64,000 nucleotides of DNA. Source: Psammoneis japonica. Its lineage: Eukaryota. Below the pieces are notes generated by a model that saw only the letters and a list, made by a program, of their open reading frames with translations, was not told where the DNA came from and did not search any database. The DNA lies in assembly GCA_008632985.1 (NCBI GenBank), contig QPGO01000001.1:62001-126000 (forward strand). Direction: 5' to 3'. Shown piece by piece: positions 23,934-49,409 of the stretch. A program made the position numbers and the translations under genes. Each line of letters opens with the position of its first letter. The stretch's first letter is position 1.

Positions 23934-26042
23934 TAAAACTCTGACCTCCAAAATCCGGAGGTACGGAAACGCACTTTTGGCAGCTCTTTTCTTCGCACAA
24001 AAAACATGCTCGACCATGATGATGCCTGGTGGTTCTTCCCCACCACCTTCCCAGGACGCCGATCCCACTGATGCCATTGCCAATGACACTGACACAACAG
24101 GCAATGTCATCACTCCGGTTTTCATGGGTGTGACACATGCAAAATAAGATGGCTGCAAACTCACACTGTTGTTTGTGCGCTCCACTGCCTCCCACAGATG
24201 CCATCACAAATTCCAATTCCGCACCTGCGTTTTGGGCCCCTTGCATGCCCAATGCTGTTGCTCCCACCTTGCTGCCACAGGCACTGTTGACACTGTCATT
24301 GTCTTTTGCCAACAACATCCACAATGAATTGCTGATGACTCACGCTTCTTTCATTCTTGCCCCACTGCCTCCCAAAGATGCTGTCAGGAATGCAAACACC
24401 GCACCGGCATTTGGGTCCACTGGCATGCCTGATGCTGTTGCTCCCACCCTTGCTGCCGCAGGCACTGTCAATGCTGTCACTGTCTTTTGCCCATGACGTC
24501 CACAATGAAATGCCAATGACTCACACTTCTTTCATTCTCGCCCAACCGCCTTCCAAAGATGCTGTCACGACCACAAACGCCGCAACTGCGTTTCGGTCCA
24601 CTGGCATGCCCAACACTGTTCCTTCCACCCTTGCTGACACAGGTGCTGTTGACGCTGTTGTTGTTTTTGCTTTGGAAGGAGGACAATGGATGATGGTGGA
24701 AAAGGAAACCCTTGGCATGGCCTGCTGATGGACGAGTGTTTGTGTTGTGGCTGTTGTGCTTTCTGTGTTTGTTCATGGTTTTCTGGCATTGGTTCAACGC
24801 ATCCTCTGGAGCACTTGCAGCCCATCAGGCAAAGACATGGCTGTCAACTTTTCAGATGTTGCCAGCATCAACAGCTGTGTTGCACAAGCATTCAGTGGGC
24901 TCTTTGCCTGCCCTTTGCTGGCCTGCAACATCAATGGACATGAATGGTGCCTCTTTGTCAACTCTTGAGTGCAGTCTGATTTTCAAAATGTGCAGACATG
25001 TGATGCAGTTCCCTGTAAATTAGAAACCTGACATCATTCAGATGGCAGGCATGCTTTCACATTTTTTCAGTTGGAGAGGTCAGCGAGTTGGCATTTGATT
25101 GCAGGCAACTTGGCAAGGTTTCAAGTGGTGCGTGTGACTTGGACACTGCTCTGCTTGCCAGAACTGGCTCATTGTCTGCAATTCCATGAGACACCACTCT
25201 TGCTGTTTGAATTCCACGTGCAATGTGCAACGTGCTGTTTTTGCAAGTTGCCAAAAAATGGAAGCAGTTGGCAACGTGCTTTTGGCAAACACTCGCCATG
25301 TTTGTTGCTGTTGGACCTTCTCAAGCAGCACCACATGGACAGCTGTGCTGCTGCTTTGCATGCCGGCACCTTCTCTGCCTGTGTTCCATTGGCTGTGTCC
25401 TCCTTCATGTTGCTGCGGCTCATCTTGATGCCTGTTGTTGGCTCAGATTGGCTCCACTGGGCTCTGGGTGAATCTCAATCACCTCCAGATGGAGGAGGTT
25501 CTGCTTGGGATTCAACCTGAGAAAAGCTGTCACCACACCCCCCAGATGCTCCTCTGCCATGCCCATGCCCATGCAAGGAGCATCGACCAGTCCATCAGCA
25601 CTCGCTGATCCTGTGCCTCCGTCGTTCCAAGCAGAATCGCCTCTGCTGCCTCCAGGCCTGCTGCTTGCATCCACATCAGCCAGAGCATGAGTGGGGCTGT
25701 TTCTCCTTGTTTTGTTGCATTGTGCTTGATTGCAGTGCTCAAATCACAAATGGCGGCAATGTCGTCCACCGTCAATTTTGGATCCAGCGAACAGAAGCCC
25801 AAGTCTTCCGGATGGCAAATCAGCTGTGTTTTTGGGTGACGAGACAGTGGGTGCAACAGTGCCGTCCAACACAGGAGGGACTGCCACATCAGATGTGGCA
25901 GGCGGGGACACGTCGGGTGGTGTGGGGGGTGGAGAACGTGAGGTCGTCATGGTCGAGTCGTCAAAACGCGTGATGTTTTGGTGTGTGCGCAGTCTTCCAA
26001 AAAGTGCGTTTCCGCACCCCCGGATTTTTGAGGAGAGTTTTA
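23934..26042. mobile_element. Decayed TIR DNA transposon, about 2.1 kb; TIRs may extend further outward
   Basis: Left TAAAACTCTGACCTCCAAAATCCGGAGGTACGGAAACGCACTTTTGG versus reverse complement of right TAAAACTCTCCTCAAAAATCCGGGGGTGCGGAAACGCACTTTTTGG; interior TpA-depleted with a broken minus ORF from about 25950. Confidence 0.7.
24182..24670 (+). repeat. Tandem repeat, about 2.7 x 180 bp
   Basis: CCACTGCCTCCCA(C/A)AGATGC at 24182 and 24362, variant at 24542. Confidence 0.85.
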
Positions 26043-27415: not shown

Positions 27416-28396
27416 TCACTTGTTGAGTTTCGCAAATCGTGCTTCCAATTCGGCATAGGATGAATTGACATTCGTTGTTCCACCGCCACCACCAGTACTA
27501 GCGCCGCCATTGTTATTACTACTCTCGTCGTCGTCGTTGTCATTCTTCTTGTCGCCATTGTCATTGTTTACGGGTGCCGAGGGAATGGTAGGTACAAAGA
27601 TGTCAACATCTCCAAAGTCATTATCATTGTCATTGTTACTCGTAGTAGTACTCGGAGCCGTGGGCGGGACAAAGACATCTGCCGAAGGAACCGTAGGAAT
27701 GTCCCCCTTGGGTGGTGGTTGATAGTTGATTTCTTGATCGACATTTTCTTGTCCCACAACAGCGGTTCCCAACAAGCCCGTTCCACCGGCTACTTGGACG
27801 CTATACCCCACTGGCGCCGCCATGGGTTGTGCCGGAGCACTGTCGGATTGAGACACGCGTGGTTTCCAATCCACTTCAAATAGCTTGCAAATCTTTTCCA
27901 AGTAAGTCTCCACCAAGGCTGCTGCGGGTGGTTGAACCGACAATTTGGAAACGACACGTTCATTCAACACTCCACCCACATTGTTCAAAGCCGCATCTTC
28001 AAAGTCTTTTCCGTATTTAGAACGAAATTGTTTCTTGATGAGAGGCAGCTCGGCAATATCGACATAATCACATGCCCAAATTAATGTCGATACACACGAT
28101 ACCAAATCGGGTGGACACGTTTTGGAATGTTCCAATAATTTGATGCGTTCCGCCAACAATTCACATTCGAGTTGCATAATTTCATATGCTTGAATGGCAT
28201 TATCTTCTCGAATCAGAGCTTCGGCACGAATTTTTGCCAATTCCTCCTTGGGCGGATCTTCGCTCAACATGACAGCAACCGCACGCATTTGTTGTTTGGC
28301 GACGGCCGTTTTTTTATTGGATGCAATTTGAAAACGACTCGAGGCCATTTTTAATTCTGTAGGAGTAGAGTATGAGAGAGAGAAGGAGTATGAGAG

Positions 28397-28440
<44 letters not shown>

Positions 28441-28641
28441 CATGCATGTATGTATGAATTACAACAAAAGCATGTTGGCGGTGGCAACAGCGCGCGTGTG
28501 AATTTCAATAATAGTTTCACAATCGGTGCTCGACTTATGCAACAACATTAAGAATCAACCCCAGCATGTCAATGTCAAGTATAATAACGATATATTCTAC
28601 TCACGAGGCTTTAATTTCTTGGCAGAAAACCCTCCAAACAT
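27416..28641 (-). CDS. IST1: IST1, ESCRT-III-like regulator of Vps4
   Basis: Exon 1 28605-28641, intron 28357-28604 (GTGAGT..CAG, contains (CA)n/(CT)n), exon 2 27416-28356. Joined N-terminus MFGGFSAKKLKPQLKMASSRFQI; AKIRAEALIRED; C-terminal MIM-like YAELEARFAKLNK. Confidence 0.95.
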
Positions 28642-28791
28642 GGTAGTTGTTATTGTTATTGATTCGTGCTGCGTTGGCTGTTTTTCAAGTTTTTTTTAGT
28701 TGTGGGATTTTCAGCGAGCATCGAGGTGATGATTCGTGATTGGAATTGCACGACTCAAAAATCGTCTGCGAACGCAAGGCGAACGGACGCG

Positions 28792-28794
<3 letters not shown>

Positions 28795-28835
<41 letters not shown>

Positions 28836-28862
28836 CTCTCGCTCTCTCTCTCGCTCTCGCTC
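28795..28862 (+). repeat. (CT)n microsatellite at the gene/repeat border
   Basis: Direct reading. Confidence 0.9.
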
Positions 28863-28899
28863 TGCATCCACCGCATGCTCTCCATTGAACAAATTACCC

Positions 28900-30900
28900 C
28901 GCACAGCAGTCGCGTGCTCTAGAGGGCAAAGACTGGAACTAAAACATGCAACATGGTGCCACCATTTCTCAGAATTGTGATGCTTGTCTCGGATGGACTT
29001 CGGTCTGCTCATCATTTCACCGACGTAAAGCACACATCACCAAATTTCACATCTCCACATGGCAAATTCTTCAGCCCCCTCAAGTCAATGAAGTGGACAA
29101 TGAATCGGCTTGATCCAATTTGCTCTCTCCGGCCATGTTTGGCCGCGCTGATGTGACAAGGAAACCCTGACAACCTGCGCCCATCATTCTAAGCTCATGC
29201 CTTGGACCTCGCAAAGCTTCCATGCCTGCTTCACAGCCACAAACTCAGCTCCAAAGACTGAGGTCTCAATGGCACTCTGTCACTCAGAAACCCAGGCAAC
29301 CAATGCCATGTTTAAATGTGCAAAGCAGCCCACATGGGAGCACCTTGTCAGCTTGTCATTGGCATGGTTGGAATGCACAAACAAGTGCAGGTCAACATCT
29401 TCACCCAGAGCTTCTGGTGCATTGGGCAGAACAGCTTCCTTCACGTCCCCACAAAATGCCTTCCTGCCGCATTCCTTGAAGTCAGACATGTCCATTTCTG
29501 GGTGTGTCAGATCAAACACCAGCCTTGCATCATGTCTGGCCTTGAGGCATCCACACACATGCAGGATGGCCTCAAGATGGCCCTCCCTTGGTGCAGTGAG
29601 GAATGAGGCAAGCTGTGAGGTGTGCAGCTGGAAGTGCTTGCACAGCAGCGGGTGCCAGGCACCCTGCAAAAACACCAGAGTTGTTTCTGAGCAACTGGTC
29701 TGAGGCCATTTTGTCTTTTGGAGCCAAAGTGCAGACATGGCATTGGTGGTGCCAGAGATGCCTCAAAACCATGTGAACTGATGAGCCAACAAAAATGCTT
29801 GCGCATGATGATGCATCAGAGGAAGGAGCTGTTTGGGTTCAGTGTCCATGTGGTTTTTCTGCTTGTTTCCTGCAGCTTTTTGTAATTGTCATTTGGGTTG
29901 TGCAACATTTCCACCTGCTTCCACTGGCGCAAGTGCATGCTGAGCTGTCCAGAGAATGCCATCATTTTGTTCCCTTGTGTGTGTGTGCCACTCACACAAG
30001 GGAATTGTCAGACTAAAAGAAAAGCCACAAAGTCACCTTGGCCCAGCCAGCCCTCTCTGCCATGTCTGCACAGGATGGGCATTTTGAGCCAAAGGCCATG
30101 GACAAGCAAAGGTTGCTCCATGCTAAAAACACAACACTTGAAGAAATTGCTTTTGTGAAACACATGCTGGAGCTGGGAGAAGTTTGTGACAAGGAGCTCT
30201 CCGGAAGAAGAATTGGTGTGTGCTGCAGCTGCAGCAAAAAGTTGGCTGCTGCATGACCAATGTTGGCAAGCTTGAGTGGCCAGATCCCACTCCTGTTGAA
30301 TCTCAGGCACAAGCTCATGTGAAAGGAGGTGGCCAGGAAATGCCCACCCATCTGGCGGCAGCATGCAAGCAAGTGCGGTGCCTCACTGGAAGAAGATCAA
30401 GCTGAAACCAAGGGCCTGTGCAATGCCTCAAGAAGAGGCCAAAGTCAAGGAAGGGAGATGATTTGACGCTGCACCCACTCCTGCCAGAGTCAAAGAATGA
30501 CATCCCAAGAAGAAGCTGATTCAAAGATGGGTGATGACCCGATGCCACAGCTGCTCCTGCCAGAGCCAGAGAGTGAAAACCCTGGTGCCCCACCAGCCAG
30601 GCAACAGCAGCATCCAAGATGTGCTCTCCCATCTGTGTCGTGAGATTCAGCTCTAGGTGGGACCTTGTGTGGCTGGACTGGTCTTTGGACATGTGCCACA
30701 TGTTGCTTGCTCACACTTGTGTGTGTGTTCTTCCACAAAATTTCCCGTGCTCCTTCCTGCTCTGAGGGGGGGGGACAAAGGCTTTTTAATCCATGCATTT
30801 GTGAGAGTCAAAATCAGCCAGGTGTTGGTTGTGGCATCTGTTCTGTCATGTTCTCAATGGGAGTCATTCGGGCCCTCACAGCCATTGTGTGTAAATCACA
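28900..30900 (-). mobile_element. Heavily decayed Ty1/copia remnant (RT end and RNase H recognisable at 29170-29640)
   Basis: ASFLTAPREGHLEAILHVCGCLK...VFDLTHPEMDMSDFKEC...LFVHSNHANDKLTRCS...ETSVFGAEFVA, homologous to 63540-63960. Outer limits approximate. Confidence 0.8.
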
Positions 30901-32096: not shown

Positions 32097-33599
32097 GGCT
32101 AAATCAAGACAGATTGCAGAGATTGAAGATACACAAAACGAGGATAGTGAGGTGTGATTTCGCGCGTTGCGGCGCCACTTACTCCACTGCACGCGAGAGT
32201 TCCCACAAATTTTCTTGGAGTTCTCTGGATTTCCTGCGCGCGCTTCGTGGCGCGTGACTTTGGATGAAGCATGGCGCGTTTTCTGGAGGAATTACTGGGC
32301 GGGCAGGTGGGGTTTTTCTGGTCACATTGCTGGATTTTTCACCTTTTTCTGGGTCAATTTCTGGGTGGTCCTTCTCGGATTTTACTGGTTTTCATTCCTG
32401 GACGCCAAATTGCTGTCTCACATTTCTGGGTTTGAGGGTTCCTCCAATGTTGTGGGGGACGGCCCATTTCTGGAACACCAGGAATCGGTGCTCTCCTCTG
32501 TTCCTGGACCATGTTTCTGGTGCAGCATCATTCTCAACTGTGGTGCAACGCATTCATTTAAATGCCACAGCACTGACAACTGTGACATCAATGGAGAATC
32601 AATTGAGATGCAACCAAACAAACCAAGTCAACACACATTGGCGGAACTGACATGTTCCATGCAGCACTTCACCGCGCAGTTTCTCACGATTCTCAATGCA
32701 GAAAGCAAACTTTCAATTAATCGTCAAGCCTCTTCCTTGGTTTTCTTGCCCTTCTGGGCCTGTCAGAGGTGCATCTCTGTCTTGCAGTGCATGCCATCAT
32801 CCTGAGACTTGTTCGCAAAGGATTCGCTGTGGTTCTGGCTGCAAGCATGGTGGTCGCATGCATTGTTCTTTTGCACCTCATCGGATGCTCTGTGGCAGTG
32901 TGTGCAAGAGGGAAGAACAATTGGTGTGAGTTGCCAGAAAAGGAAAAGAGAGCTGTTCTGAGGACAACTTGCCAACATGACGAATGTGCGAACATCCAAT
33001 CCCACAAGCATTTGAAGCACCGAGCACATCGACAGAGGAACGTGATGGATGGGCGCGGCGCCATTTTCAGCATTGGCCTGTTGCTGTTGCTTTTTAGCCT
33101 GCAACACAACCACACCTGCTGTTCTCTCATTGACATTGCCAATTGGCTGGTCTCACAATGCACCGATCAATGCTGTGTGCCACCTGGCTCTTGGCTTGAG
33201 CGAGATGGCAGAGAAGAGGCTGTTCGAGGAGCGAGCATGATGAGACCCTTTGGGCACCCCCCTGTCAAACCTGACCAGATCCATCTGCAACATGCAGAAA
33301 TGCTCCTCCCAGACCTGCAGTCCAAGACCTCCCATCTCTTCCAAATGGCGAGTCAGAGTTAAAGCTGTTTTCTCTCTCAAGCTTCCAAGTGCAGCAGGGG
33401 GGCAGAAGCAGAATCAATGCAGGTTCTGGCATTGAACTCACCTTTCAGCAAACAACCCAACAATCACAGCATGCAGAGCCTGTGTGACTTCTGGCATTGA
33501 TCTCACTGTCAGGAACAGTCAGCGCATGACATGTGTGATCACAACGACTGCAGCTGCCATCAATGGCATCAACAATGACGGTTGTTGCTTCAATTTGAC

Positions 33600-36270
33600 A
33601 GCCTGCATTTTGCCGCCCCCCATTCTGAAAGTTTCCCCTGGTTTTCCCTGGAGACCTTCAGTGCATTTGGCTTTCAGTTGCTGGATTGGTTGGTTGCGGC
33701 AGGATGTCCTTTAACTCTGGAGCAGCAGTTGGGAAAATTTCTCACCCCATTTTGGCATGGATTGAGTGACCGGGGGCTGGAACTTCACAAGATGAGCCTT
33801 GCAATGCTCAGCCAACATTCTCACAGTGTTCCCTGAGTTTCTCTGGACACCTTCAATGCCCTCAGCCTGCAGTTGCTGTGTTGGTTGGTTGCACCAGGGT
33901 GTCCTTTCACTCTGGACTCAGGGCTTTCATCAGGTGTCAGGTCTTGCTCTGGTGGCATGGGGGCAAGTGACTGGGGGCTGGAACTGCACCAGATGTTCCT
34001 TGTGACACTCCCCCACCAATCTCAAAGTGTTTTCTGGGTTTCACTGGAGACTGTCAATGCCCTCAGCCTGCAGTTGTTGGGTTGGTTGGTTGCACCAGCA
34101 TCAGGGTGTCCTTTCACTCTGGAGTCAGGACTTTCATCAGCTGTTGCTCTGGCTTGGCTGAAGTGACTTGTGGCTGCAACTGGACCAGATGAGCCTTGCA
34201 ACACTCCAACACTGTTCTCAAAGTGTTCCCTGGGCTCCACCAGACATTGTTGGGTTGGCTGGTTGTGTCATGCTGGTGTTCTTTCTCTGGGGAGACAGGA
34301 GTTTTTCTGCTCTCACTCTGGCATGGCTGAAGTGACTGGTGAGCACCACTGCACAAGGCACAACATGAGCCTTTCAAAACTCCATCACCACCCTCAAAGT
34401 GTCCTCTGGTTTCCCTGCAAATCTTCAATGCCTTTGGCCTGCAGTTGATGGGTTGGTTGTGTCAAGGTGTCCTTTCACTCTGGAGCAGTTGGGAATTTTC
34501 CTCCTCTCATTTTGGCATGAATTGAGTGTCTGAGGGCTGGAACTGCAACAGACGAGCCTTGCAACACTCTGCCGCTGTTCTCAAAGTGTTCCGCGGGTTC
34601 CACAAGAGACCTTCGATGCCCTCAGAAAACAGTCATTTGGTTGGTGGATTGCATCAGGGTGTCATTTCACTCTGGAGCAGTTTGGCAGTTAACTGCTCTC
34701 AATCTGGCATGAAGCAAGTGACTGGGGGTTGCAACTGCATCAGGTGAGCCTTGCTGCACTAAAACACCAATCTCAAAGTGTTTCCTGGGTTTCACTGGAG
34801 AAGTTCAATGCCCTCAGCCTGCAGTTGATGGGTTGGTTGGTTGCATCAGGGTGTTCTTTCTCTGAGGAGTTGTGGGAGTTTTTCTGCTCTCACTCTAAAA
34901 GGCGTTCAGTGATTGGTGGCTGCAAATGCACCAGATGGGCCTTGCAACACTCCACTGCCATTCTCACAGTGTTTCCTGGGTTTGCCTGAAGAGCTTCAGT
35001 GTCCTCAGCATGCAGTTGTTGGGTTGGTTGGTTGCATGAGTGTGTTCTTTCTCTGAAGAGTCAGGAATTTCAGCTCTCACCATGTCATGGAGTGAGTGAC
35101 TGGTGGCTGCACTTGCACCAGATGGGCCTTGCGACACTCCACTGCCATTCTCACAGTGTTCCCTGAGTTCCTCTGACGAGCTTCAATGCCCTCAGCCTGC
35201 AGTTGTTGGGTTGGTTGGTTGCATCAGGGTGTTCTTTCTCTGAAAAGTTGGGAGTTTTTCAGCTCTCACTCTGGCATGCATTCAGTGGCTGGTGGCTTCA
35301 ACTGCAACAGATGGGCCTTGCAACACTCCACCAGCACTCTCAAAGTGTTCCCTGGAACCCTCCAAAGACCTTTGATGCCCCCAGCCTGCAGTTGATGGGT
35401 TGGTTGGTTTGCTGCATCAGCGCATCCTTTCACTTTGGATTCAGCAGTTTCAAGTCTCACTCTGGAATGGATTGAGTGACTGGTGGCTGCAACTGCACCA
35501 GATGAGCTCTTTGACACTCCAGCAACATTTTCAAAGTGCTCTGCCCTGGGCTCCAGTGGAGACCTTCAATGTCCTCAGCTTTCAGTTGTTGGGCTGGTTG
35601 GCTGTGTCAGCGTGTCCTTTCACTCTGGAGTCAAGAGTTTCAGCTCTCACTCTTGCATGTGTCAAGTGACTGGCAACAGCAGCTGCACCAGAGAAACCTT
35701 GCAACACTCCACCACCATTCTCAAAGTGTTCTCTGGGGTCCACTGGAGACCTTCAATGCCCTCAGAGTGCACTTGTTGGGGGTTGTTTGGCTGGAGTCAG
35801 CAGTTTCAGCTCTCACTCTGGCATGGATCAAGTGATTGGTGGCTGCAAATGCATGAGATGAGTCTTGCAATGCTCCGCTGCTGCTCTCAAAGTGTTCCTT
35901 TTGTTTCAAGGGAGAGCTTCGACACCCTCAGCTCTCAGTTGTTGGGTTGGTTTGCTGCATCAGGGTCCTCTTTCACTTTGGATTTAGCAGCTTCAGGTCT
36001 CACTCTAGAGGGGATCAAGTGACTGGTGGCTGCAACTGCACCAGACAAGCCTTGCAACACTCCGCCATCATTCTCAAAGTGTTCCCTGGGGTCCGCCAGA
36101 GACTTTCAATGCCCTCAGCCTGCATTTGTTGGGTTGTTTGGTTGCATCAGAGTGTGTCCTTTTACTGTGGAGTCAAAAGATTTGGCTCTCACTCTGGCAC
36201 AGATCAAGTGATTGGTGGCTGCAACTGCACCAGATGAGCCTTGAATGCTCTGCCACTGTTCTGCTCAAAA
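33600..36270 (+). repeat. Degenerate tandem array, about 14 units of about 190 bp
   Basis: Core AATGCCCTCAGCCTGCAGTTGTTGGGTTGGTTG at about 33856, 34056, 34427, 34617, 34807, 34998, 35185, 35375, 35568, 35756, 35922, 36108. Confidence 0.92.
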
Positions 36271-38634
36271 TGTTTGTGCCTTTGGGCATGTGGAGGAAGC
36301 TGAGAGTGCAGACAAACTCTTGTCAGAGGAAGCTTTTTCTGCTGTTGGCTGACACTTGCTCCTCAGTGCTTTGAGATTTGTGTCTGACCTGGGGACAGGA
36401 AGAGTGTGGGCAGATGATGATGATGATGGCAGCAATGACGACATGTTCGATCGTGTTGTTGTGCTGGAAGTGCGTGGTGCTTGTTTGTGAGGACAGGCTG
36501 TGATGGGCAACAACAGCACCGAACGAAATGCGCTCATTGTGGAAGGAAGCAACAACGCCACTTTCCATGCCACTGAAGTCCACAGGACTTTTGGCAACTT
36601 CATTTTTCTTTTTGGCTTGCAACAGCACAAACTCAAGTGCTGCGTGCAACCACTCTCTAGAGAGAAAAGACTTGAAGCTTGATGCCAAGAATGGAGGAGT
36701 GTCTGTTGCACTGCTCTGCAATGGGATTTTTGAGAGATTTTGATTTTTCTTTGATGGGTGTCAGTTGCGCGATCATGCTTGCTAAAATTTTTGATTTTGC
36801 AGGCGGGTGACGCAAGAACCGGTGGAAGAATTGTGCTGCTGCCTGTTCTGCATTGCAGAAGTTGGCAGTCGCACAAAGGAGTGTTTTGCAGAATTGGGCG
36901 GGGAGTTCTGAAAGAATTTTTTTTGCAATGGCATTCAATGAAAGACTGTCTTTCAGCACACACATGATGTCAGAAACACGAACAACCGATCCCACAAACG
37001 TCCCCGATGTTGATGTGTCTGAAATCCCCAAATCATCATTCCCATCATGGACCATTTCGCATGACCCCACAACCTGTTTTTCTGACTGTGCCAAAACCAC
37101 TGAGTGAAAAGAAAGACCACCGCAGGACTGAGAGCACAAGAACGGCAGCAGAGGATGCGGGATCAAAACCAAGCCCATGTCCAAAGCCTCTGCAATGTAA
37201 ACAACATTTTCTGAACTTTGTGTGCCACAAATCCATCTCCTCCTCCTTTGATTGAAAAGAAATGTGATGTCTTCTCTCCAGCTGGAGAGTGCCAAAAAGT
37301 TTTTTGGCACAGTCAAAGAATGGGTTGTGAGGTTTTTGGCTCTGTGCAAAATGCGGTCCATTGCCAAATCTGCGCATGGGGACACACCGAATGATTTTAG
37401 CCAGTGGCTAAAATCTTGTGTGGACACATGCCAGGTTTGCACACTGGTGCATTTTCCACACAGGAAATGTTTGCTGTCCATTTCACTGAACCTGTGAATG
37501 TCATGTGTGCAGCGGTTTGCTGCTGACTGTGACGTTCGTCAACATGAAACCTTCAGCTTTTAAGCCTTAAAAAACAAGTGCAAAAACAAAAAACTTCAAA
37601 CAATGACATGCGTGCAAAAGAAGACAATGGGGCGGCATTAAAAGGCGTCATCATCAAATGAATCGCATGCCAGAAGAAATGTGTGGAATTCTGCAGGAGG
37701 TTTCTAGCCACTGGCTAAATTCATTCGGGATGTGAGCACTTTCTTGGCTCTGTGCAAAATGCATGGGGTCTGTCATTCAGTGAGGGCGCGCGAAAAACCC
37801 GGGTGTGATGCGCGTTTTTCACTTTGGCAAAGGCCGTTGAGCTGTTGTCAAATTTGTTTGATCACTGAGATGCATGTCCACTGTTTCTCCCCTTCATCAT
37901 GATCGTTGATTGATGAATCAACAGTTGCAATGGTCCAAACAGTTGCAGTGTTGCTGCCTCCAACACTCAAAGGGGCATGACGCCTGGGGCACTTGGGGAA
38001 TTTTCCTGGGTTTTTGTGCGTGCTTCGTGCCCGCAGAAGCTGTGTGGTGCTCTGCACTGCAACTCATGACAAAAAAGGCAACACATGCAAGCTTGTTGCC
38101 GCAAGAGCAACAGAGTGCACCAATGGAACAACAAACGTTGGTTTCTCGTCATGCCGTTGAGTTTGTGGCATCAACAGCAATTGGGTGCAGCTGAGGAGGC
38201 AGAAGCAGGATCCTCGCCATTGAGCATTCCAGGCTTGATGGTCGCTGGTGTGGGTGGTGATGATGTGACAGAAGTGTGTTTTTCACAGGTGGCCACAGCG
38301 GAGGCCAAGGAAGAGGGAGATGGTGGTGACAGTGGAGCAGAACAATGTCAGCTCAAGACCAACAACACTTGAAACACCTCTGCGCAGCAATGAAATGACA
38401 GCAACACTCACATTCTGTTGACTCACCATCTTCATCTGACGTGTTCCAGCCGCACGTGAACCAAATCGTGCACAAAAACGACATTTGCGTGATTTTTGCG
38501 CGGTCCCTGACTTGCGATCGAACTTTCACCACCAAAAGTGTAGATTTGTGCAAGTGTGAATGTTTTGCAACACTGACAAGACTCGTGTGAGTGTTGCAAT
38601 GTCATTGTTGTTGTGCTGTCTGTGTTTTTCACAA

Positions 38635-39049
38635 GCAGTGGTCACCTCCATTTTGTGGGAAAAAAACCGTTGAACAATTGGGTGGATGGATGTGTTTCAA
38701 TGATCATGTCTCTCCCTCAAACACCGTCATCCGAACAAACCCTCAGTGTCTTGCCCCCTTTTCACACACGAGGAATTTGGCTCTGCTGTTCGTTTTCTCC
38801 GACAACGCGATTTGAGAAAAAACCGTTAAATGTGTGCATTCACTGATGAGTTTAACGGCTGTTTTCCCAAATCGCGTCATCGGAGAAAACGAACAGCAGA
38901 GCCAAATTCCTCGCACATGAAAAGGGGGGCAAGACACTGAGGGTTTGTTTGGATGACAGTGTTTGAGGGAGAGATGTGATCATTGAAACACATTCATCCA
39001 CCAAATTATTTGACGGTTTTTTTCCCACAAAATTTGGGTGATCACTGCT
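38635..39049. repeat. Foldback inverted repeat (MITE-like), about 195-bp arms with about 20-bp spacer
   Basis: Arms align end to end; differences are mostly CA/TG/TA/CG swaps. Confidence 0.93.
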
Positions 39050-39779
39050 CATTGCGTTAAAAGATTCGTAACACAACGGATGATTTTCGGCGAAAACATT
39101 GCCGTCATTTGGATGTCACCTAAATGTGTCTTTCTGCGATGCCACTTGGCAGGTTTTCTACCTGCAAAAAAATCTCTGTGTGAATCTGCTGACGCACAAT
39201 CAGTGTTGAGTCTGCTGAGGAAGTTTGTGACACATGTCCCATGAGGATTTGAGTGCCCCTCAAAAAACCATTTAAATGTTCACACTCTAGAAGCCTGCAA
39301 AAGTCAATCCATCCAAGTGTTTTTGTTAAAATGCTGTGCACTAAAACACACATAAATTGCATTCAAAATCCGATTGTCTTTTGTGCATCACTGGAACACG
39401 TCATCTTCATCCCCATCACCAGAATTTTTGGTTGTTGCACACAAGAGCATCATGAGGCCTCCCGACCACTGGCATGATTGACGTTTGCATTTCAACCATG
39501 AAAGATGAGAAGCAGCAACTCTCAAGAGCACTGGTGGTGAGTTTTAGACACTGCAGAAACAAAGGGAATGGAGAGAGCAAAAACAATGTAGCAGCACACG
39601 CCTTGAGCACCGCAGATGGGATTGACATCGTCATTCTTTGAAAAGACCAATCAAAATGCTGCGAAGCATTCAGAACATTTGTCAGCTCAAGAATGTCAAT
39701 GTGAACAACTGCGTGTGACAAAATGATGGGAAAGCTCACATTCAGCCAACCTGATTGTTGCGTTCGACAGTGCGGTGAT

Positions 39780-40690
39780 TGCGAAGTCGCGTCGCTGTGC
39801 ATCCTGACCACTGGCATTTTTGATTGTTGCGTTTCAATGAGTTGAATTGTGCAGCATCTGAACTGCAGCAGAAAAGAGGAGAAATGGCAAGTCTCAGACA
39901 AAAAAGAAAGGAAACACAGAGAGAATCAAAATGACGTTGGCACATGCCTTCTGTCGCACAGTGGCACTGGCATGTGGCGGCATTCTGACCACTGGTGTTC
40001 CACCAGCATTTTGATTCTTACATTTTAATGTCTTGAATCACTCAGCATCTGAACCACAGAAGGCAAGAGCAAAAATGTTAAGTCTTGAACAACATGGCAC
40101 AAACCTGGAGTGTTGCACAGCGGCATCGGCGTGCACCGGCATCCCAACCAACAGCAGCACTCCACTGCCATTTTTTGTTCTTCCATTTCAATGTCTTGAA
40201 TTGATCATCACCTGAGCCAGCAGGCAAGAGGACGAACAGCAAGCCTCGGATGACAAGGGAAAAAGGGAGAATCAAAAATGCCGCACATGCCTTGAGTGTT
40301 GCACGGTGTGTGCTGGCATCCCGACCAATCATGCTCCACTGGCGTTTTTGATTCCTCCATTTCAACATTGTCTTGAATTGCTCTGCAACTGAGCTGCAGC
40401 AGGCAAGAGGAAAAGTGACAAATCTCAGACAACAAAGAAACAAAATGAAAAATCAACACAATGCCGCACATGCCTTGAGTGTTGCACGGCATGCACCGGC
40501 ATCCCAGCTGGTGGATTCCAACAGCATTTTTGATTCCTCCATTTCAATGTCTTGAATTGCTCAGCAACAGAACTGCAGCAGGCAAGAGGAACAATGACAA
40601 GTCTCAGACAACAAAGAAACAAAGCATGAGTCAACACAATGTCGCAAATGCTTGAGCATCTCACGGCATGCACCGGTGTCATGACCACTG
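39780..40690 (+). repeat. Degenerate tandem array, about 5 units of 165-190 bp; isolated copy near 42260
   Basis: TTGAATTGCTC..CAAC.GA.CTGCAGCAGGCAAGAGG at about 39842, 40032, 40195, 40372, 40551. Confidence 0.8.
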
Positions 40691-42968
40691 GGACTCCCAC
40701 TGCTCGAGTGTGGGTGGGCCCAAGCAATGCCAAAAACCATTGGCAGCTGTCACCATGTAATTTGGCAGTGTTTTGGTGCTCCACATGTGAGGCATTTATG
40801 TGGAAATTGCGTGTGTGCAAACATCAGGGGAAACGAGCGTGGAGAAGAGACGATGCGAGCAAAGCACGATTGCCGGAAAGAGATGCAATGAGAGCAATCC
40901 AATGACATTGCAAGGGTGCAAAAGAGAGAAAAGACCAGTTTGAGTTAGCACCATGTCTTCAATGAAAACGAACAAAGCAAGACAACATTGGCGTGCACAA
41001 AAACTTGCGCATGGAAGCACAGCACCAGTGCCTGAAAAATGACCACATCTGGGGTGACATGGAGCAACACAAGGAGGTGAGAACATGCTTTTCTACAAAT
41101 GCAAAGCAACAACAAGCAAACGACCAAAGCAAACTCACCAGCAGGGTCAAAACTTGGGGTGCCTGGATCGTCAATGGTGGGCAGGGAGGACAGATGGAAG
41201 AGAGGCAGTCTGGTGGTTCCACAGAGCAGGGTGACAAAAGCAGGTGGCAAATCGGCATGAGCAATGGTGGAAAGTCGGCACTTGGGATCAAGTGACTGTG
41301 GAGAACGGAGGCAGCGCCATGGTGGGATGGCATGGGCCGGGGAAAGAAGAAGTGCCATGGCGGAATGGCGTGGAATGGTGACGGAGCAAAAAATGGTGAT
41401 GGCAGTGGCGCAAACCCGGGACTTGGACATCCCTGTCTTTGAGTCATGTGCATCAAGATGCGGGTCAAGGAGGTTCAAGGTGAGTGCCATTGCGAACAAG
41501 AACGGAGAAAAAGACACACAATTCCACAAGAATCAGAGCTCAACACATTTTGAGTCATTCTGACCCATTCCAGAGCCAGGGCTCACTCACATGGCACGAC
41601 CCAATGGATTGTGACACTGTCAAGCAAGGCAGGGGTCGGAAGGCAGTGTTGCACCGGTCAAATCGGCCAAAAGCACCATTGTCGGAGGGAGCAGTGGGTT
41701 GTTGATCGGCCGCTCGGAAAAATTGTGAGCCATCAACTCGACCGCGCACCGTTTGGAGTCGCACAAAATTTCTCGGTGCAAAATGTGCACAAGTGTGCGT
41801 CAGCATAAAATTGTGCAGAAGGGTTGCAAGCAGAACCTCGCTGTCTCTCTGTAGACTGCAAGGATTCTGCCGTTGAACTGTGCCAGCATGAACAATTCTG
41901 CGTGGCCCATTTGAATCAATCCCACAAACGTTTTTAAACATTGATCCTGCTGACAGTTTCAGGTGCAAGATGAACACATGTGTGAGTTTCAATTGATTGT
42001 CATGTGCAATGTTGACAATTTTGAATGATTGCGCGACTGCCAGTCGGCATGAAAAACCGTTGCCAACAAGCAAACCTCAGCCCAACCAGAAGGCCACACG
42101 ACAAGCTGTGGGGTCGTTCTCGCCATTGTGCAACCCGCCTCGTCGGTCTCCACCTCATTGCTTGGACCCTTCTCGTCACTCATTGGGCTCCACAACAAGT
42201 GCACAGGGCGCGCACCTGCAGGGCTCCACTGGCATTGTTGATTGTTGCATTTTTAAAATTGGTTGAATTGCTCTGTGCCCAACTGCAGCAGGCAAGAGGC
42301 AAATGGCAAGTGTCAGGCAAAAAAGAAACAAAGGCAATGCAGCAGAGAAAATCAAAACAATGGTCTTGTTTTGCTGTCAACGGCATTTGCACAAAACCTG
42401 AAGTGCACGGTCGTGAACGTTGCGCAAGAGAAAAAAGAGGCATTCTCAGGAAATGCAGCAACACTGTGCGCAGAATGCACACACATGTCATTGCACTTGC
42501 ATGCCTTGCTTTGCTGCCGTCGCCATTTGTGTGGACTCCATTGTTGTTTTGCTGTCGTTGCTGTTCATTGTCAGCTCTTTCACTCATCCTGCGCTGAATT
42601 CTGCGCAGAGACAAAAACCAGGCGTGACACCCCGCGGTGCTTCACACCCGGGTTGTTTGTGCGGGTGTGACACCCCAGGTGTCGTCACATCCCATGAAAA
42701 AAGGGGGTGTGATGCCTGTTTCTGAATCCGGGCGTCACGCCCACCCGGGCGTGACACCCGTGCGAAATGCGCCCTCACTGAACGATTGCCAAATCTAGAC
42801 CGGGACTGGTGCGAGAGTCAGTCGTGCCTGCATCGCACTCCGCTGCCACGCTCAACGTGCCACATGCTCTCACAGCACACAGATGCAGCATTGCATCATT
42901 CCCGTTCGTGTTGTTGTCCTTGTTTCTTTGTTGTTCTTGTCTTTCAAAAGCAATGAAAAGAAGCAGAA

Positions 42969-45900
42969 ATGGCAAATGAAGCCGCTCCAAATGAGCTGAG
43001 AATCTGGCATGAGCTGCACGGCAAGCCAGCATCGGCGATGGCCCTGCTCATGCAGCGACCCCCCAAAACAAGGGTCACTGCCACTGCGCATGCAGTGACC
43101 CCCCAAAACGAGGGTCGCTGCAGCTGCGTTAAATTCCACGTGTTTGCACCAGGAAAATGTGCCTCCAACCCATCCAGCAGGCGTGAGCAACATTTTGTGC
43201 ACGAGAAAGAGTTCGTTGGGGCAGGCGAACAACATCACTCTACGATGCGACTGGTGCAAAATCCACGTAAATGCACAGATGCGCTCTGGAGCATGTGTGT
43301 GCAAATTCGAGCTCGCAAACAACAAGCAGGGATGATCGCTTCAAACGCCCTCATTGACGATTTCCGCAAGGCAATCATCTCGGAGAATCCTCCACTGCAA
43401 TTGCTTTCCCTGGGAACCATCAATGTCTGCAAGCCCGGGACGCCTGCTCCTGTTCCCGATGGAACTGAACGTGTCAACCCTTGTTGCAAAGTCGCTGATT
43501 TGGGTCGAAACACAGAGAGTGGTGCCTTGATTGCAGTTCCTCCTGCACTGCCTCCGACACAGCAGCAGCAGCAGCAGCAGCAGCGAGATGGCAAGTTGAG
43601 ATGTTGCTCTCGCGCTCAGTGTGCTTGCAGGTTGAACATCGATTTGAGCTGCATTCTCACCAGTGTCTCGCACAACTTGCACCAGCAAACCGGTCCTTGG
43701 TGTCTGCATGTGAGAGGTTTTTACCGCAGGATTGGGACGGACAAGCCCCAACCCTCAAACCCTTTCAACCAGCAGACGATGCCTTGTTCCACCACATTTT
43801 CAACGGGAGGGCACAGATTCCCTGCATCCCAAAATGTGACAAGCCCTCTCTTCTTCTTTTCGACCTGACAAACGAGGCACACAAAGAAACAGATGCCTGC
43901 AAGTGCATCAATGCAAGCAGGAAAAAGGGACCAAGCGCAGTTTGTGGCACATCTGGAGCGGGCAAGACGCAGCGTGGACTCGAGCATCTCTCCCAAAATT
44001 GTGGTTTCTACTTTGTTGTCAACAACAAAGACAATCCTGGCTCGGGTGATGTGAGGGGCTTGCTGCATGTCATCGAGGACAAGCTTGTTTGACATGATTC
44101 TGGTGCAGATCCAATTCGTCTGTCTGAAGACAATCTTGAGGTTGTGTTGAAGCACTTGAAAGTCTTGGTTGCTGCGCGGACAATGGTGTTTCATTGTCTC
44201 AAGAAAATCCGAGATCTGAGTTGCCACGAGTGGCTGCTCACTCAGCTTTTCCCCAAGGAATTCCTGGGGAAAGACGTTTTCAAGACTTTGATGATTGGTT
44301 GGTTGGAAAAGGACTTGCCAATTGATCTTCCCAAAGTGACAACAAACATGGCTTGTTTGGTTGACGAGGCTCAGACACTCAAGGACAAATTGCCTCATTT
44401 TTTCTTGTCGAGTGATGGAAAGTCCAAAAGATCTGCATGCAAGGCCTTTGTCCAGGGTTTCACGGGATTGTCCAAAGAAACACCCATCTTGGGTCATCCG
44501 GTGTTCAGTGGCACGGGCTTGTCTCTTCATGCATTGCAGAGCAAGACCAAGTCCGTGATGGCCAAACCACTTGTGCACGAGCCTGTCTTCACCAGCATGA
44601 AACCCCTGGGAGTGTCGGAAATTGCAGCTCATTTGCAACTTTTCTTGAACCTCAACGGCGTCGGGTTGGACCTGATTGAGCACATGGCAAAATGGTTGTG
44701 TGGTTGACCCAGGTGGGCTGCAACATTTTGGAGACATTTCTGCAGCACAAAAGCAGACAAGGGGGTCATGCCGCATCCTCTGGGACTTTCACGGAACACG
44801 AACGCCCAATCATTCAAGCTGTGGACCGTTGCATTGAAAGGGTTGCCACGGATGCGAACCAGTCCAACAGGAGGCTTTCGTGGACTTTGGGAGAAAGTTC
44901 GGCCTGCGCGGCTGTGAGCAAATTGCACACCCGTCGACTTGACAACAGCAACCAATGGTTGGTGATGAGTCAGCTCAAAGACGCAAGTTGTAAATTCGCT
45001 TTGTCCGGCAGTGCGATGACAGTGTGTGACACTGCCGCTTGCTTGACAGAGTGTGGCATTGTGTCAGTGGTGACTCGCATCGGTGATGAAGGTGATGAAC
45101 CAAGCGACCATGTTGACTGCAGGACAGATGAACCTCTGACAGTGCAATCGTGCATCAATTTTTTTGGAATCGACAAATTGCTTGAGGTTGAAATGGCACT
45201 GAAATGCAGAGAAAGTGAGAAAGGAAATGGCTTCGAACATTTTCTACTTCCTGCAATCCAAGGCAACTTTTCAAAGGTGATGAAAGAGCAGCTGGAAGAT
45301 GACATCGGTGACTTCGGTGACTGTTCTGTGCCAAAGCTGTCATCGCATGGTGTGCTTGCGCATGAATGCTCGGGCATCAACGAAACCCTGAATTGGCTCA
45401 GCAATTCAATGGATGCTCAACTCGAAGGCATCGTTGAACCATTTTGCTTTCCTGACAAGAGCATTGGCCCGGACTTGATGTTCTTCCTTAGAAATCTTGT
45501 CTGCAAAATGCGATTGTGTGTTGTGCAAGGAAAATTCAAGTGCAAAGTGAAAAATCAGGCAGGCACTCTTCGCACCATTGAACCCAAGCAATTTTATCAG
45601 GAATCGCGAAAATTGGGACGCAATTCTTCTCCTGCGTCTGTCATGACCAAAGCACAACATGAAACTTGGTCGACAATCCAAGAAACGTTGTTTAAAATGA
45701 AGAATGCCCCCGCTGAACAGATTGCACAGAATGGCAGACCCACGACACACGCCAACAAAAGCAAGACCAAGACGCGAGTGAAGCAAGAACGAAATGCTGA
45801 GGTTGCCTGGATGATGGTCCAATTTCCTGCGACTCGGACCATGTCAGCCCTGGTGCCGTTTGATGAAAAGAGCACTTGCGGCCTGCAATGCAAACGCCAC

Positions 45901-46020
45901 AAGCATGATGCTTTTTTGACAATTGATGGTGGATCTTTTGAAGCATGTCAAAAGCAGAAGTGGGGACAACGACGAGACCTGGAAGTGGTGACAGTTGCAG
46001 TCCTACAAGGTGCACTTTGA
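42969..46020 (+). pseudogene. Mutated Crinkler-like gene: ubiquitin-like header, P-loop NTPase, restriction-endonuclease-like domain
   Basis: Header IWHELHG...IDDFRKAIISENP; Walker A GTSGAGKT; GFYFV..NPGSGD; Walker B CLVDEAQ; FSGTGLS; KGNGFE; FPDKSIGPDLMFFL..VQGK. In-frame TGA at about 44090 and 44705, frameshift, Tyr replaced by Cys/His. Confidence 0.75.
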
Positions 46021-46529
46021 CAGCATGTCCTGCTGATCCATTGGCCACGCTGATTCGCCGTCCACTCCACAACATCATCACATCAGAAATCCCGAAGAGA
46101 GACATCTTGTGCTGGAGTGGCTTGTGATGCAGAATGATGTCGAAAGGTTTGGCAGAAGTGCCTTTTTCTGGTGGCCAAAACTTTGGTGCCACCAGGTTTC
46201 TCAGCTGGCTCCCCAGACTTTGCTCTGGTGCCAACACAACTGCAGAGTCCAGCAAACCACCCAAACTGTGCTCAACACATTGAGATTGTGCCTTGTGACA
46301 TGAAGAGTGTGCTCAAAAGAAAAAGCTGCAAACACTTTGTCACAAGTGACTTTTTTGCTGGCTGACACCTGGCCAATGTGCAGCTCTGCACTCACAGAGG
46401 CTGCTCTGCCACCACAACCAGGCTTCTTGCTTTGCACACTTCCCAGAGGTGGCTGCTTTGCCACCACAACTGCAGTTGAGCAAGCCACCCAAACTGTGCT
46501 CAACCCTTTGAGATGTTGGTCCTTTGGAC

Positions 46530-47364
46530 ACAAACAGTGTCCAGACAGAAAACGAGTCTGTTTGCAAACTCTGCTGGGGCAATGTCAGGCCAAAACAACA
46601 ACACAAGATGGTGAGCCAAGCCAACTGCCACTCTTGAAGTCCACCCCTGGGTCACATTGAGTTGTCTGGAGTCCTCTGCTGGCAACTGTTTGGTTTGTTT
46701 GTCATGCTTGAGGTGCCCATCCATTGTCCAGACAGAACTCAAGTCTGTCTGCAGACTGCTGGGGTGATGTTGGGCCAAAACCACAACACAAGATGAGTCA
46801 AGCCAACTGCCAATCTTGCAGTCCACCCCTGGGGTCACATTGAGTCATCTGGAGCCCTCTGCAAGCAACTGCTGTTTGGCTTGTTTGCCATGCTCGAGGC
46901 ATCCATCTGTTGTCCAGACAGAAAATGAGTCTGTCTGCAGACTGCTGGGGTGATGTTGGGCCAAAACCACAACACAAGACGAGCCAAGCCAACCACCACT
47001 CTTGAAGTCCACACCTGGGTCACATTGAGTTGTCTGAAGCCCTCTGCAAGCAACTGCTGTTTGGCTTGTTTGCCGTGCTTGAGGCATCCATCCTTTGTCC
47101 AGACAGAAAATGAGTCTGTCTGCTGCCAGCTTTGGGGAGGATTTTGATCCCGAACAATGACAGATGAGCCTTTCTGACCAAAATGAATGCTCTTAAAAAC
47201 CACCTCAGGGGCACAGTGAGAAGGCCAGAATCCTTGGTTGACAACTGCACAGTCAGTTTGTTGCACTTGAGGTGTCCATCCATTGTCCAAATGAAAAAAT
47301 CAAGTCTGTCTTGTGCTGGTCTTGGGCAATGTCAGGCCAAAACAACACCAGATGAACCAAGCCA
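46530..47364 (+). repeat. Tandem array, about 4.5 units of 186 bp, interrupted by nested insertions and resuming at 52892
   Basis: GTCCAGACAGAA at 46539, 46726, 46912, 47097, variant at 47285. Confidence 0.9.
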
Positions 47365-47785
47365 GGGAGTCGCCTCAAACACGTTGAAAGCATGGAGGTC
47401 ATCATCATGCGCGTGATGGCGCGCGTGTTGCAAGCGAATGCGTGAGCAATGAGCACGTCCGTTAAATTCACTTCATTTGTAGATGGACATCCTGCACAAA
47501 TTCTGCAGTTTGGCACTGCCCTCAGTCTTTACTGCTCATGTGCAAGTGCATTGGTCATCAGTGCACCTGTGTTTTCATGATCCAACGGACATCTCAAAAA
47601 CGTTGAAAGTTAACACGGTGAAAGTTAACACGTTGAAAGCTGTGTCTTTCAACGGATTTCCGTTGAAAGCTGTCTCGTTGAAAGTCAACACGTTGAAAGC
47701 TGTGACTTTCAACGGATTTCCGTTGAAAGTTAAAAAACGTTGAAAGTGCATCTTTCAACAGATTTCCGATTTCCGATGACATCAT

Positions 47786-48663
47786 CTACACGTCCCAAAG
47801 CGGCGAGCCAAATTCCAACTGGTGCTGCGCGATGACGCACACTGCCTCGAAGCAGCGGCGGTGTTTCTCGACGCCATGCCGAAACGTCCCGGAGAGGCAA
47901 GCGAAGTTTTTGATGCGGGCATTGAAAGCCTCTTGACGAGACCGAGCCCGGCTCTTGAACTTTTGTAGCTCAGGTGAGTCATGGGGGTTTGGTGTGCTGA
48001 TTTTTTTTCTCGCCTCGGCAACCGTCTTTCCTGCAGGCATTTTTTTAACAAGCTTCTCTCGGAACATCGCAAGGTCGTGCTTGGAGGCCTTGGCCGGCCC
48101 TCTCATCCATGCAAGCCGGTTCTCATAAATTGACAAAGCGAGTTCACATGTCAATCCGGCTTGATTGGTTTTGTGTGAGTGGCATTCCTTGTTTTTCCCA
48201 CACAGCAGGTGCTGGGGTTCGTTCACCCGGCAGTGGACGCCGTCCAAAGAAATGACAAAAATGGGTGAGTCACAAGCAGAATGCTTCCATTCTTCTGGCC
48301 AAACAACTTTCTGTTTCTTGAGTGCTCGCATCTTTTTAACACAAAACCAAACCCACTTCGTGCCGTGTTCTCACAGATTTTGAAAATGGCCGATCGGACT
48401 TCCTCCGTTTCACAGAGTTTCAAGAAATTGAGGGCCATCAGAAATGAGCCCAAGCAGACATCTTTAAGATCAACCCGGGCTTTTTCAATCTGAGTTGTTT
48501 GGAGGTCATGGAACACGTGTTTGCAAACTCTAGGAGAGGAGCCACGCAGCTTCTTGAATCGTCTGATGTTGCGATCTTTACAAGACTTTCTTTGGCGATG
48601 TAAGTTGATGCCATAGAGCATCAGACCCTTTTGGAGCAATGCAGCGGTCAAAACTTTGATCAT
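47786..48663 (-). pseudogene. Harbinger DDE transposase (DDE_Tnp_4-like), inactivated
   Basis: ISLDGVHCRVNEP, SHKTNQAGLTCELALSI, HDLAMFR, RARSRQEAFNARIKNF, FRHGVEKH; frameshift near 48350; the DxGY motif expected after GKTV appears deleted. Confidence 0.88.
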
Positions 48664-49044
48664 TGCACAGTCCAGCTCTCAGTGAGACATGAGATGCAAC
48701 AATCAAATTGTGGAGGTCTTGCTGTAGAGTCTTGTGGGATCGCGGCACTCGTGTGGTTTCTAAAACGTTCATGGGACCTAGCTCCAACTACATCAGCATG
48801 CACTGGGCACTCACATTGTCACAGCCTCCTGCGCATTGTGCTGCAAATGTGAGCTCAGTTCTCTACATGCACTGCTTGTGCTGTTTGCGCCCACCAGTGG
48901 TGTGTCAATTCAATCGACACCACTCGCTGCTCACGACACATGTCTTCACGATCGTGAGCACAATCTACGCTCGTCAGCAAGATTCACGCTTGCTCAGACT
49001 TCCAGTTCTTGCCAAACTAAAACACAGAGACAATGCCAAGCAAC

Positions 49045-49345: not shown

Positions 49346-49409
49346 GCACAGGAGAGAGCATGCCTGTGGGATGGACTGCTTGCCAATTGATCCAATTGTT
49401 CCAAGTCCT

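Follow-up and report, generated by a model that had tools for sequence, protein, structure and literature searches.

The 64-kb window analysed here (contig QPGO01000001.1 of Psammoneis japonica, positions 62,001 to 126,000) is part of a diatom-type nuclear genome, and long blocks of it have lost most of their TpA dinucleotides (TA). This loss was probably caused by a targeted mutational process that acts at the DNA level, is specific for 5'-TAY-3' (Y, pyrimidine; R, purine), and converts A:T to G:C pairs in repeats, transposons, and duplicated gene fragments. Across the window, the observed/expected ratio (O/E) is 0.30 for TA, 0.73 for CG, 1.47 for CA, and 1.45 for TG. The TA O/E per 500-bp bin is bimodal, lying at either ~0.4 to 0.9 or ~0.0 to 0.2, with abrupt changes. 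Segmentation by a two-state hidden Markov model (HMM) on TA counts (0.5 versus 4.0 TA per 100 bp) yielded 37.6 kb of depleted DNA with 189 TA and 26 kb of normal DNA with 1040 TA, the latter made up of host genes and the intergenic DNA beside them. The TA O/E is 0.03 to 0.2 in the depleted blocks, which have sharp boundaries, and an ordinary 0.5 to 0.9 in the host genes and the intergenic DNA around them.

The TA that survive in depleted DNA are sorted by their flanking bases. YTAR, mixed (YTAY or RTAR), and RTAY sites number 99, 81, and 9 in the depleted HMM set versus 167, 560, and 313 in the normal set (chi2 = 140, p = 3e-31), and the corresponding depleted/normal density ratios within the window are 0.41, 0.10, and 0.02. 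Four small TA-richer islands were merged into the depleted set because of their survivor-type contexts (36 TA, of which 19 are YTAR and 1 is RTAY), and two low-TA stretches in the second FG-GAP gene (55501 to 56000 and 57501 to 57800), which contain RTAY, were counted with that gene. The depleted set so defined holds 218 TA (116 YTAR, 95 mixed, and 7 RTAY). Relative to an intergenic control of 8.6 kb (469 TA, or 55 TA per kb, divided 85/257/127 in the same order), its density ratios are 0.31 for YTAR, 0.083 for mixed sites, and 0.012 for RTAY (chi2 110). Relative to an open reading frame (ORF) control of 16.2 kb (511 TA, divided 54/277/180), they are 0.91, 0.146, and 0.017 (chi2 184). YTAR makes up 52% of the TA in depleted blocks, versus 31% predicted by a first-order model from the blocks' own dinucleotides. 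At the extreme, 32145 to 39007 (6862 bp) contains no TA of the RTAY, TAT, or ATA type, which occur at ~22 per kb in normal DNA, and TATA half-sites number 2 in depleted versus 94 in normal DNA. RTAY accounts for 6 of the 181 TA in the seven main depleted blocks together.

These results agree with most of what an initial annotation of this DNA had proposed from hand counts. The survival order that it predicted, YTAR > YTAY/RTAR > RTAY, was found against three baselines, and the comparison that it suggested, of NTAN tetramers in depleted and intergenic DNA, revealed a nonuniform depletion and intergenic DNA free of YTAR enrichment (18% YTAR, 27% RTAY). Exact lists reproduce its counts for 6190 to 9290 (16 TA, 10 of them YTAR) and for 28900 to 30900 (11 TA, with 8 YTAR and 3 GTAA). 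For 33600 to 36270 (2671 bp), it had reported about six TA, five in YTAR plus one TTAC; the types of context were right, and the number was too low, one TTAA having been missed. The exact list there is 7 TA, of which 6 are YTAR (TTAA twice, CTAA twice, TTAG, and CTAG) and the last is TTAC.

The context dependence is well described by a half-site model, in which the TA-N of each strand is lost independently and the effects multiply over the ten reverse-complement classes. The model fits with a chi2 of 5.2 on 6 degrees of freedom, and its likelihood ratio versus uniform loss is 152 on 3 degrees of freedom. Half-site survival is 0.70 for TAA, 0.58 for TAG, 0.21 for TAC, and 0.086 for TAT, so that TAR half-sites are partly lost too, at a survival (0.6 to 0.7) that depends on the baseline. 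The half-site 5'-T-A-Y-3' would thus be recognised independently on each strand, with TAT ahead of TAC, and TAG and TAA far behind. TAY would turn into TGY on its own strand, and RTA into RCA on the opposite one. RTAY is the rarest context because it carries two targets, which would lead to its near erasure, and YTAR survives because it offers none. The initial annotation had held that the A of TAY is mutated, most efficiently in RTAY. The TAY rule stands, but a higher efficiency at RTAY is not required, as the presence of two targets suffices. Since the A of TAY and the T of RTA belong to the same base pair, the attacked base is indistinguishable on sequence evidence. Beyond the half-site, sites with a T two bases before TA survive ~3-fold better, and some effects are seen at +2, both on small counts. 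Among the products in the blocks, the gain of TGC/GCA roughly equals the loss of TAC/GTA, the gain of TGT/ACA falls much below the loss of TAT/ATA, and CpG decay feeds the same products.

The best-characterised depleted block (58801 to 64000, + strand) is the 5' part of a Ty1/copia long terminal repeat (LTR) retrotransposon, truncated by the end of the window. It comprises a gag-like frame (58707 to 59918, +) and a pol frame (60621 to 63698, +), which is open over 1025 codons and interrupted by an N run at 61087 to 61508. The pol frame matches Pfam RVT_2 above the cut-off (E value of 7.6e-13), which identifies a copia-type reverse transcriptase. It has 1617 relatives, the best with 62% identity over 100% of the query, and those with names are from the diatom Fragilaria crotonensis. 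Comparison of the window with itself retrieved no LTR pair, and the element runs off at 64000. In 500-bp bins over 59001 to 64000, excluding the bin with the N run, the TA O/E is 0.07 to 0.29 while that of CpG is 0.76 to 1.08. Measured against 80 unmutated copia relatives, the block has ratios of 0.36 for YTAR, 0.22 for mixed sites, and 0.037 for RTAY.

Tyrosine codons, which the initial annotation had named as the main casualty, are indeed the part of the pol frame that has suffered most. In an alignment of the part after the N run (61509 to 63698) with the 60 closest relatives, the element keeps 3 of the 21 conserved tyrosines versus 349 of the 405 residues in other conserved columns. The tyrosines lost are replaced by cysteine (TGY) in 11 columns, histidine (CAY) in 5, and phenylalanine in 2. 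Each of the 60 closest copia proteins retains at least 80% of the tyrosine columns, and none of them has lost its tyrosines. As a separate observation on the same stretch, all six surviving in-frame tyrosine codons read TACG, and the 12 mutated TAC codons all have a base other than G after them (Fisher estimate, ~5e-5). Protection of TA by a following CpG was dropped as a rule, since TACG makes up only 8 of the 26 TAC half-sites in the block and the association fails window-wide.

Selection could in principle produce elements that avoid TA, for example under attack by a TA-cutting nuclease, a UA-specific RNase, or insertions that target TA, and TA avoidance is known in other settings. This explanation appears remote, however, because the tyrosines replaced by cysteine or histidine are conserved and presumably functional. 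Moreover, the mutated frames are equally depleted in all three codon phases (TA O/E of 0.04 to 0.23), and dead gene fragments and noncoding arrays are depleted as well. Avoidance of TA is seen in none of the 80 copia relatives found in metagenomes (437 kb); their TA O/E is 0.51 to 0.90, with 6 to 27% YTAR, and none is TA depleted.

The copia stretch is present in one public sequencing run (X1) at a word depth of 250 to 2650, which indicates a high copy number. No RNA run is listed for this stretch, and runs X2 and X3 gave no contig on it. Among the 394 X1 contigs placed on this stretch, 102 are at least 99% alike to the window. The contigs that cover 61509 to 64000 differ at 82 places (19 A>G, 17 T>C, 21 C>T, 20 G>A, and 5 transversions). 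The 40 variant places that were displayed represent 29 events. Eleven of these are flips between TG and CA at neighbouring places, with RTAY-type flanks in 6 cases; another 6 have TA in the window and TG or CA in other copies, and 3 show the reverse; ~5 are of the CpG type, and 4 are of other kinds. The flips and the TA polymorphism show that the copies were mutated separately from a TA-bearing ancestor. This finding also bears on the possibility of a sequencing or assembly artefact, such as the systematic miscalling of a modified base in silenced DNA. An artefact would be in keeping with changes that are limited to possibly chromatin-marked blocks, and the sole run with the copia sequence may be the source of the assembly. 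It is nevertheless barely credible, as the separately built X1 contigs carry the mutated sequence together with copies that have the other outcome at the same site, which a miscall would not generate, and the affected gene fragments have diverged by indels and other substitutions as well.

The tyrosine replacements also reveal the direction of the change and the strands on which it took place. A tyrosine-to-cysteine replacement results when A becomes G on the sense strand, and a tyrosine-to-histidine replacement when this happens on the opposite strand. The ratio of the two, 11:5, compares with ~12:4 calculated for a strand-symmetric process with half of the sites after a purine. The presence of both outcomes excludes editing of sense RNA only or of a single cDNA strand. 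It thereby makes very unlikely a process confined to retrotransposition, in which an RNA adenosine deaminase acts on the transcript, or a deaminase on single-stranded cDNA, and the changes are fixed at integration. Such editing would suit the fact that the best-characterised block is a copia element with independently mutated copies, and a T before the edited A resembles the context used by ADAR. However, editing of sense RNA would leave only tyrosine-to-cysteine and editing of minus-strand cDNA only tyrosine-to-histidine replacements, whereas both are seen (11 and 5), together with the TG/CA flips between copies. The process has also acted to an equal degree on host gene fragments, on tandem arrays, and on a gene family unrelated to copia.

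ADAR prefers a U before the edited A and a G after it. Its favoured triplet, TAG, survives here (0.58), the preference at +1 being for a pyrimidine, and the 11 tyrosine-to-cysteine changes, 5 tyrosine-to-histidine changes, and 11 TG/CA flips are not restricted to a transcribed strand. ADAR (A-to-I) and APOBEC (C-to-U) editing are enzymatic deaminations, and what the present pattern shares with them is the clustered transitions in retroelement copies, as described for APOBEC (PMC4866542). It differs in that those systems act asymmetrically, on RNA or one cDNA strand, whereas here both strands, and also DNA that is not from retroelements, are affected.

The effect on DNA other than transposons can be followed in fragments of two host genes within the depleted block at 3101 to 9300. 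Decayed fragments of an FG-GAP gene lie at 6158 to 6347 and 6602 to 6784, and one of IST1 lies at 8633 to 8974, as located by blastn and tblastn in the HMM block; intact copies of both genes are found 3 to 20 kb away in the same window. The 14 TA of the intact copies correspond in the fragments to TG (6), CA (5), TA (1), and other dinucleotides (2), and 16 of their 34 CpG have become CA or TG. The fragments have also diverged by indels and other substitutions. Their presence in this block suggests either the capture of gene fragments by an element or old local duplications. The intact genes are spared. The FG-GAP repeat protein gene (9359 to 12133, +; Pfam FG-GAP_2, 1.4e-36) adjoins the depleted block and has a TA O/E of 0.28 to 0.62, and the IST1 gene (27416 to 28447, −; Pfam Ist1, 1.7e-45) is the parent-type copy of the fragment at 8633 to 8974.

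If a genome-wide mutational bias against TA were visible only in neutral DNA, with selection keeping TA in genes and promoters, the depleted blocks would be expected to be intergenic, as they are, and CpG decay does mark several of them as old. Such a bias is nonetheless highly improbable. The synonymous junctions between a third-position T and a first-position A (T3-A1) in host genes have ordinary TA (O/E of 0.52) and ample RTAY (57 of 198), and the 8.6 kb of intergenic DNA keeps 55 TA per kb, 27% of them RTAY. Furthermore, the copia block is depleted with its CpG and reading frame intact, and the block boundaries are sharp. The codon-phase, fragment, and tyrosine results thus indicate a mutational process that is confined to particular DNA, and they fit neither coding selection nor a genome-wide bias. 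GC-biased gene conversion was also considered and was rejected, because the loss is specific to TA and its flanks, and blocks and normal DNA are almost alike in GC content.

Noncoding repeats provide a further record of the process. A tandem array on which 14 units of 166 to 201 bp could be aligned occupies 33629 to 36264 (periods of 187 to 201 in Tandem Repeats Finder). Its units each differ by 10 to 22% from the unit consensus, and CpG is almost absent. Its frames matched no Pfam family, and an Rfam search of it gave no match. When the observed substitution spectrum was applied context-free in 2000 simulation runs, 73.5 ± 7.9 TA were expected (minimum, 47), versus the 7 observed. This shows that TA were removed while the units diverged or later, and that a TA-poor founder unit is insufficient as an explanation. 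A related second array, with a period of 193 and 66 to 68% identity to the first, lies at 52995 to 53724.

On the + strand of the first array, the changes relative to the unit consensus are A to G at 0.114 per site and C to T at 0.104, higher than T to C (0.075) and G to A (0.067), and the array block has a mild strand asymmetry, with 774 TG and 658 CA. TG/CA flips among the units were dropped as evidence on TA, as several of the columns carry CG in some units and look CpG derived.

The decay of CpG in the same blocks is a distinct phenomenon. The CpG O/E is 0.0 to 0.2 in 7001 to 8500, 17001 to 18000, 29501 to 30500, 33501 to 36500, 46001 to 47000, and 53001 to 54000, with several bins containing 0 CG. 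It is 0.8 to 1.1 in 5501 to 6500, 42501 to 43500, 50001 to 51500, and the copia element, and TA is gone there too. The loss of TA where CpG is intact indicates that it is separate from, and faster than, the decay of CpG. Methylation-driven CpG decay resembles the TA loss in affecting the same blocks and in yielding the same products, TG and CA, but it cannot remove TpA. Methylation of transposons in diatoms is documented (PMC9998398). The near-zero CpG of these sub-blocks may be due to a long history of methylation or to another hypermutation, one directed at cytosine.

The targeted TAY-specific process would be an enzymatic genome defence resembling repeat-induced point mutation (RIP), in which repeated or silenced DNA is recognised and its bases are then converted. 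Host genes and their promoters escape it at distances of a few hundred bases. The signal that directs it could be homology, small RNA, or chromatin. Adenine deamination to hypoxanthine, which pairs with C, is a plausible chemistry, proposed here tentatively. Neither A-to-G nor T-to-C changes create a stop codon, so that reading frames persist even as the encoded proteins are disabled, and this accounts for the abundance of long spurious frames in the blocks. With still more reserve, it can be suggested that diatoms, or this lineage, possess a natural enzyme that deaminates chromosomal adenine at 5'-TAY-3' in repeated or silenced DNA, as the chemical mirror image of RIP.

The natural target of TadA is U-A-C in tRNA. 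TadA/ADAT2 and the TadA-derived DNA base editors resemble the present specificity in the T before the A and in that TAC is a target here (0.21), but TAT, with a survival of 0.086, is hit more than TAC. We know of no natural enzyme of the TadA family that acts on chromosomal DNA.

The same targeted process could instead attack the T of 5'-R-T-A-3', for example, through a dioxygenase of the TET/JBP type that generates 5-hydroxymethyluracil (5hmU), whose mispairing with G would give T-to-C changes. The symmetry between TAY on one strand and RTA on the other makes the sequence evidence for this version identical. In dinoflagellates, 5hmU has been linked to transposon silencing (PMC11572971), and early work, as cited in PMC11071213, placed it preferentially at TA and TC. 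Nevertheless, thymine attack is unlikely, as 5hmU in Breviolum is described as lacking a sequence motif (PMC11071213), the literature searched gave no such base or enzyme in diatoms, and the efficient causation of T-to-C changes by 5hmU is an assumption and not a result.

To our knowledge, hypermutation as a defence against repeats has been known only as cytosine deamination, namely, RIP, its fungal variants, and APOBEC editing. The TA-depleted blocks resemble the products of RIP in Neurospora and other ascomycetes in that dense transitions occur in repeats and transposons with sharp edges beside intact genes, a dinucleotide context rule applies on both strands, and copies are hit independently. 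The copia element is present in high copy number in X1, and the arrays and gene fragments are repeated within the window. RIP as described, however, turns C:G pairs into T:A, chiefly at CpA, and thereby generates TpA and stop codons (PMC2621366, PMC7882544), whereas here A:T is converted to G:C, TpA is destroyed, no stops arise, and the organism affected is a diatom. The composition by which RIP is recognised, with TpA raised and CpA plus TpG lowered, is the opposite of that in the window. RIP is confined to duplicated DNA and depends on a protein of the RID/DNMT4 type and on a premeiotic stage. Diatoms are reported to carry DNMT4 proteins related to RID, with no function assigned in that account (PMC9998398). 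The hypermutation of repeats at TCG described in Pucciniomycotina (PMC12730594) is similar in affecting repeats, in its trinucleotide context, and in lying outside the classic RIP fungi, but it is cytosine based (C to T) and fungal.

Hypermutation by TpA loss, in diatoms or elsewhere, was not found in the full-text literature searched, a body that leaves most subscription journals outside its coverage. The process appears to be a mirror-image counterpart of fungal RIP that has gone undescribed, although its absence from print is not established. If the reading is true, the strategy of defending a genome by hypermutation evolved on another chemical basis in one of the major groups of marine algae, and the enzyme responsible would be the first deaminase of DNA adenine found in nature to serve genome defence in a eukaryote. 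Such an enzyme, with a simple specificity of TAT > TAC >> TAR, would be of interest for base editing and could be a ready-made context-specific A-to-G DNA editor. The process would explain how dead transposons evolve here, with frames that remain open, a loss of tyrosine, and the decay of both TA and CpG to TG and CA. Tyrosine codons would turn into those for cysteine or histidine and TATA-type promoter sequences would be erased, while stop codons would never be created. It also carries a warning for annotation, as spurious long frames would trap gene callers and tyrosine-to-cysteine or -histidine changes would blunt protein searches.

Several points weigh against this reading. The evidence comes from a single window of 64 kb, and the ancestral composition is available by proxy only, so that the apparent survival of YTAR ranges from 0.31 on the intergenic baseline to 0.91 on the ORF baseline. 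The X1 run may be the assembly's own source sample and is then no independent confirmation of the base calls. Some of the TG/CA flips between copies are perhaps CpG derived, as CG occurs in some contigs at 62333/62334, and 3 of the 11 flips sit in YTAY contexts. Of the 18 polarised events at sites that offer a target on one strand only, 13 run as predicted (one-sided binomial p of ~0.05); this 13:5 tally of strand direction gives modest support. Two of the five tyrosine-to-histidine codons are now preceded by a pyrimidine. No deaminase domain was found among the Pfam-scanned frames of the window. Finally, the targeting of repeats and transposons is shown only for the copia element, the arrays, and the gene fragments, and most blocks have no recognisable transposon gene.

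Among the seven main depleted blocks, the largest extends from 32201 to 51900 (19.7 kb) and includes two of the TA-richer islands with survivor-type contexts as well as the first tandem array. Besides this, the block with the gene fragments (3101 to 9300), and the copia element, which runs off the window end, the HMM delimited blocks at 16501 to 18000 (7 TA, with strong CpG depletion too), 24001 to 26000 (3 TA, with a 181-bp tandem repeat at 24178 to 24670), 28701 to 30900 (12 TA, of which 8 are YTAR, 4 mixed, and 0 RTAY), and 52901 to 54600, which contains the second repeat array. None of the 105 frames scanned in depleted blocks matched a Pfam family, RVT_2 having been found separately in the copia pol frame, and no Rfam family was found in the window. 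The near absence of TAA and TAG in the blocks means that only TGA stops frames there. Of the 200 stop-to-stop frames of at least 100 amino acids in the window, 143 fall in the depleted state, and the depleted state holds 108 frames of at least 110 amino acids, with frequent overlaps on both strands.

One open frame in the largest block (44680 to 46017, +) belongs to a non-copia element and to a family of proteins with no assigned function. Its matches are confined to the C-terminal half of proteins whose length is in most cases ~650 to 970 amino acids, and it has 106 relatives at an E value of ≤1e-3, of which 16 are at ≤1e-30. None of seven relatives scanned contained a Pfam family, and a protein-atlas search with the frame retrieved only unnamed fungal clusters, with low recognition. 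Tyrosine accounts for 1 of its 446 residues (0.2%) versus 3.0% in the relatives, and cysteine plus histidine for 7.2% versus 3.7%. A 78%-identical relative (P0250) has tyrosine where the window has cysteine, histidine, or phenylalanine. The family may represent an undescribed transposon protein, and in the window (region 42957 to 46017) the N-terminal half may lie upstream in other frames. A stretch of the form PFC[FY]PD...GPD is conserved across the family.

The remaining features of the window belong mainly to the host genes in normal DNA. Relatives of the IST1 protein have at most 60% identity, and those with names are from the diatoms Grammatophora, Mayamaea, Seminavis, Attheya, and Odontella. 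A second FG-GAP repeat protein gene, identified by Pfam, is found at 55309 to 58038, and further host frames encode, according to Pfam, a subtilase-type peptidase and a staphylococcal-nuclease homologue. The adjacent host frames at 12384 to 13754 and 13845 to 14780 contain many motifs similar to NVTSIHGGDD, with basic Ser/Arg-rich linkers between them. The first of these frames was scanned against Pfam and matched no family. Short tandem repeats lie at 47600 to 47768 and 52083 to 52263; their 15-base unit includes CGTTGAAAG and is found in both orientations. One of these CGTTGAAAG-unit arrays lies in a depleted block and the other in a TA-rich stretch of 34% GC, and their TA are mostly TTAA.

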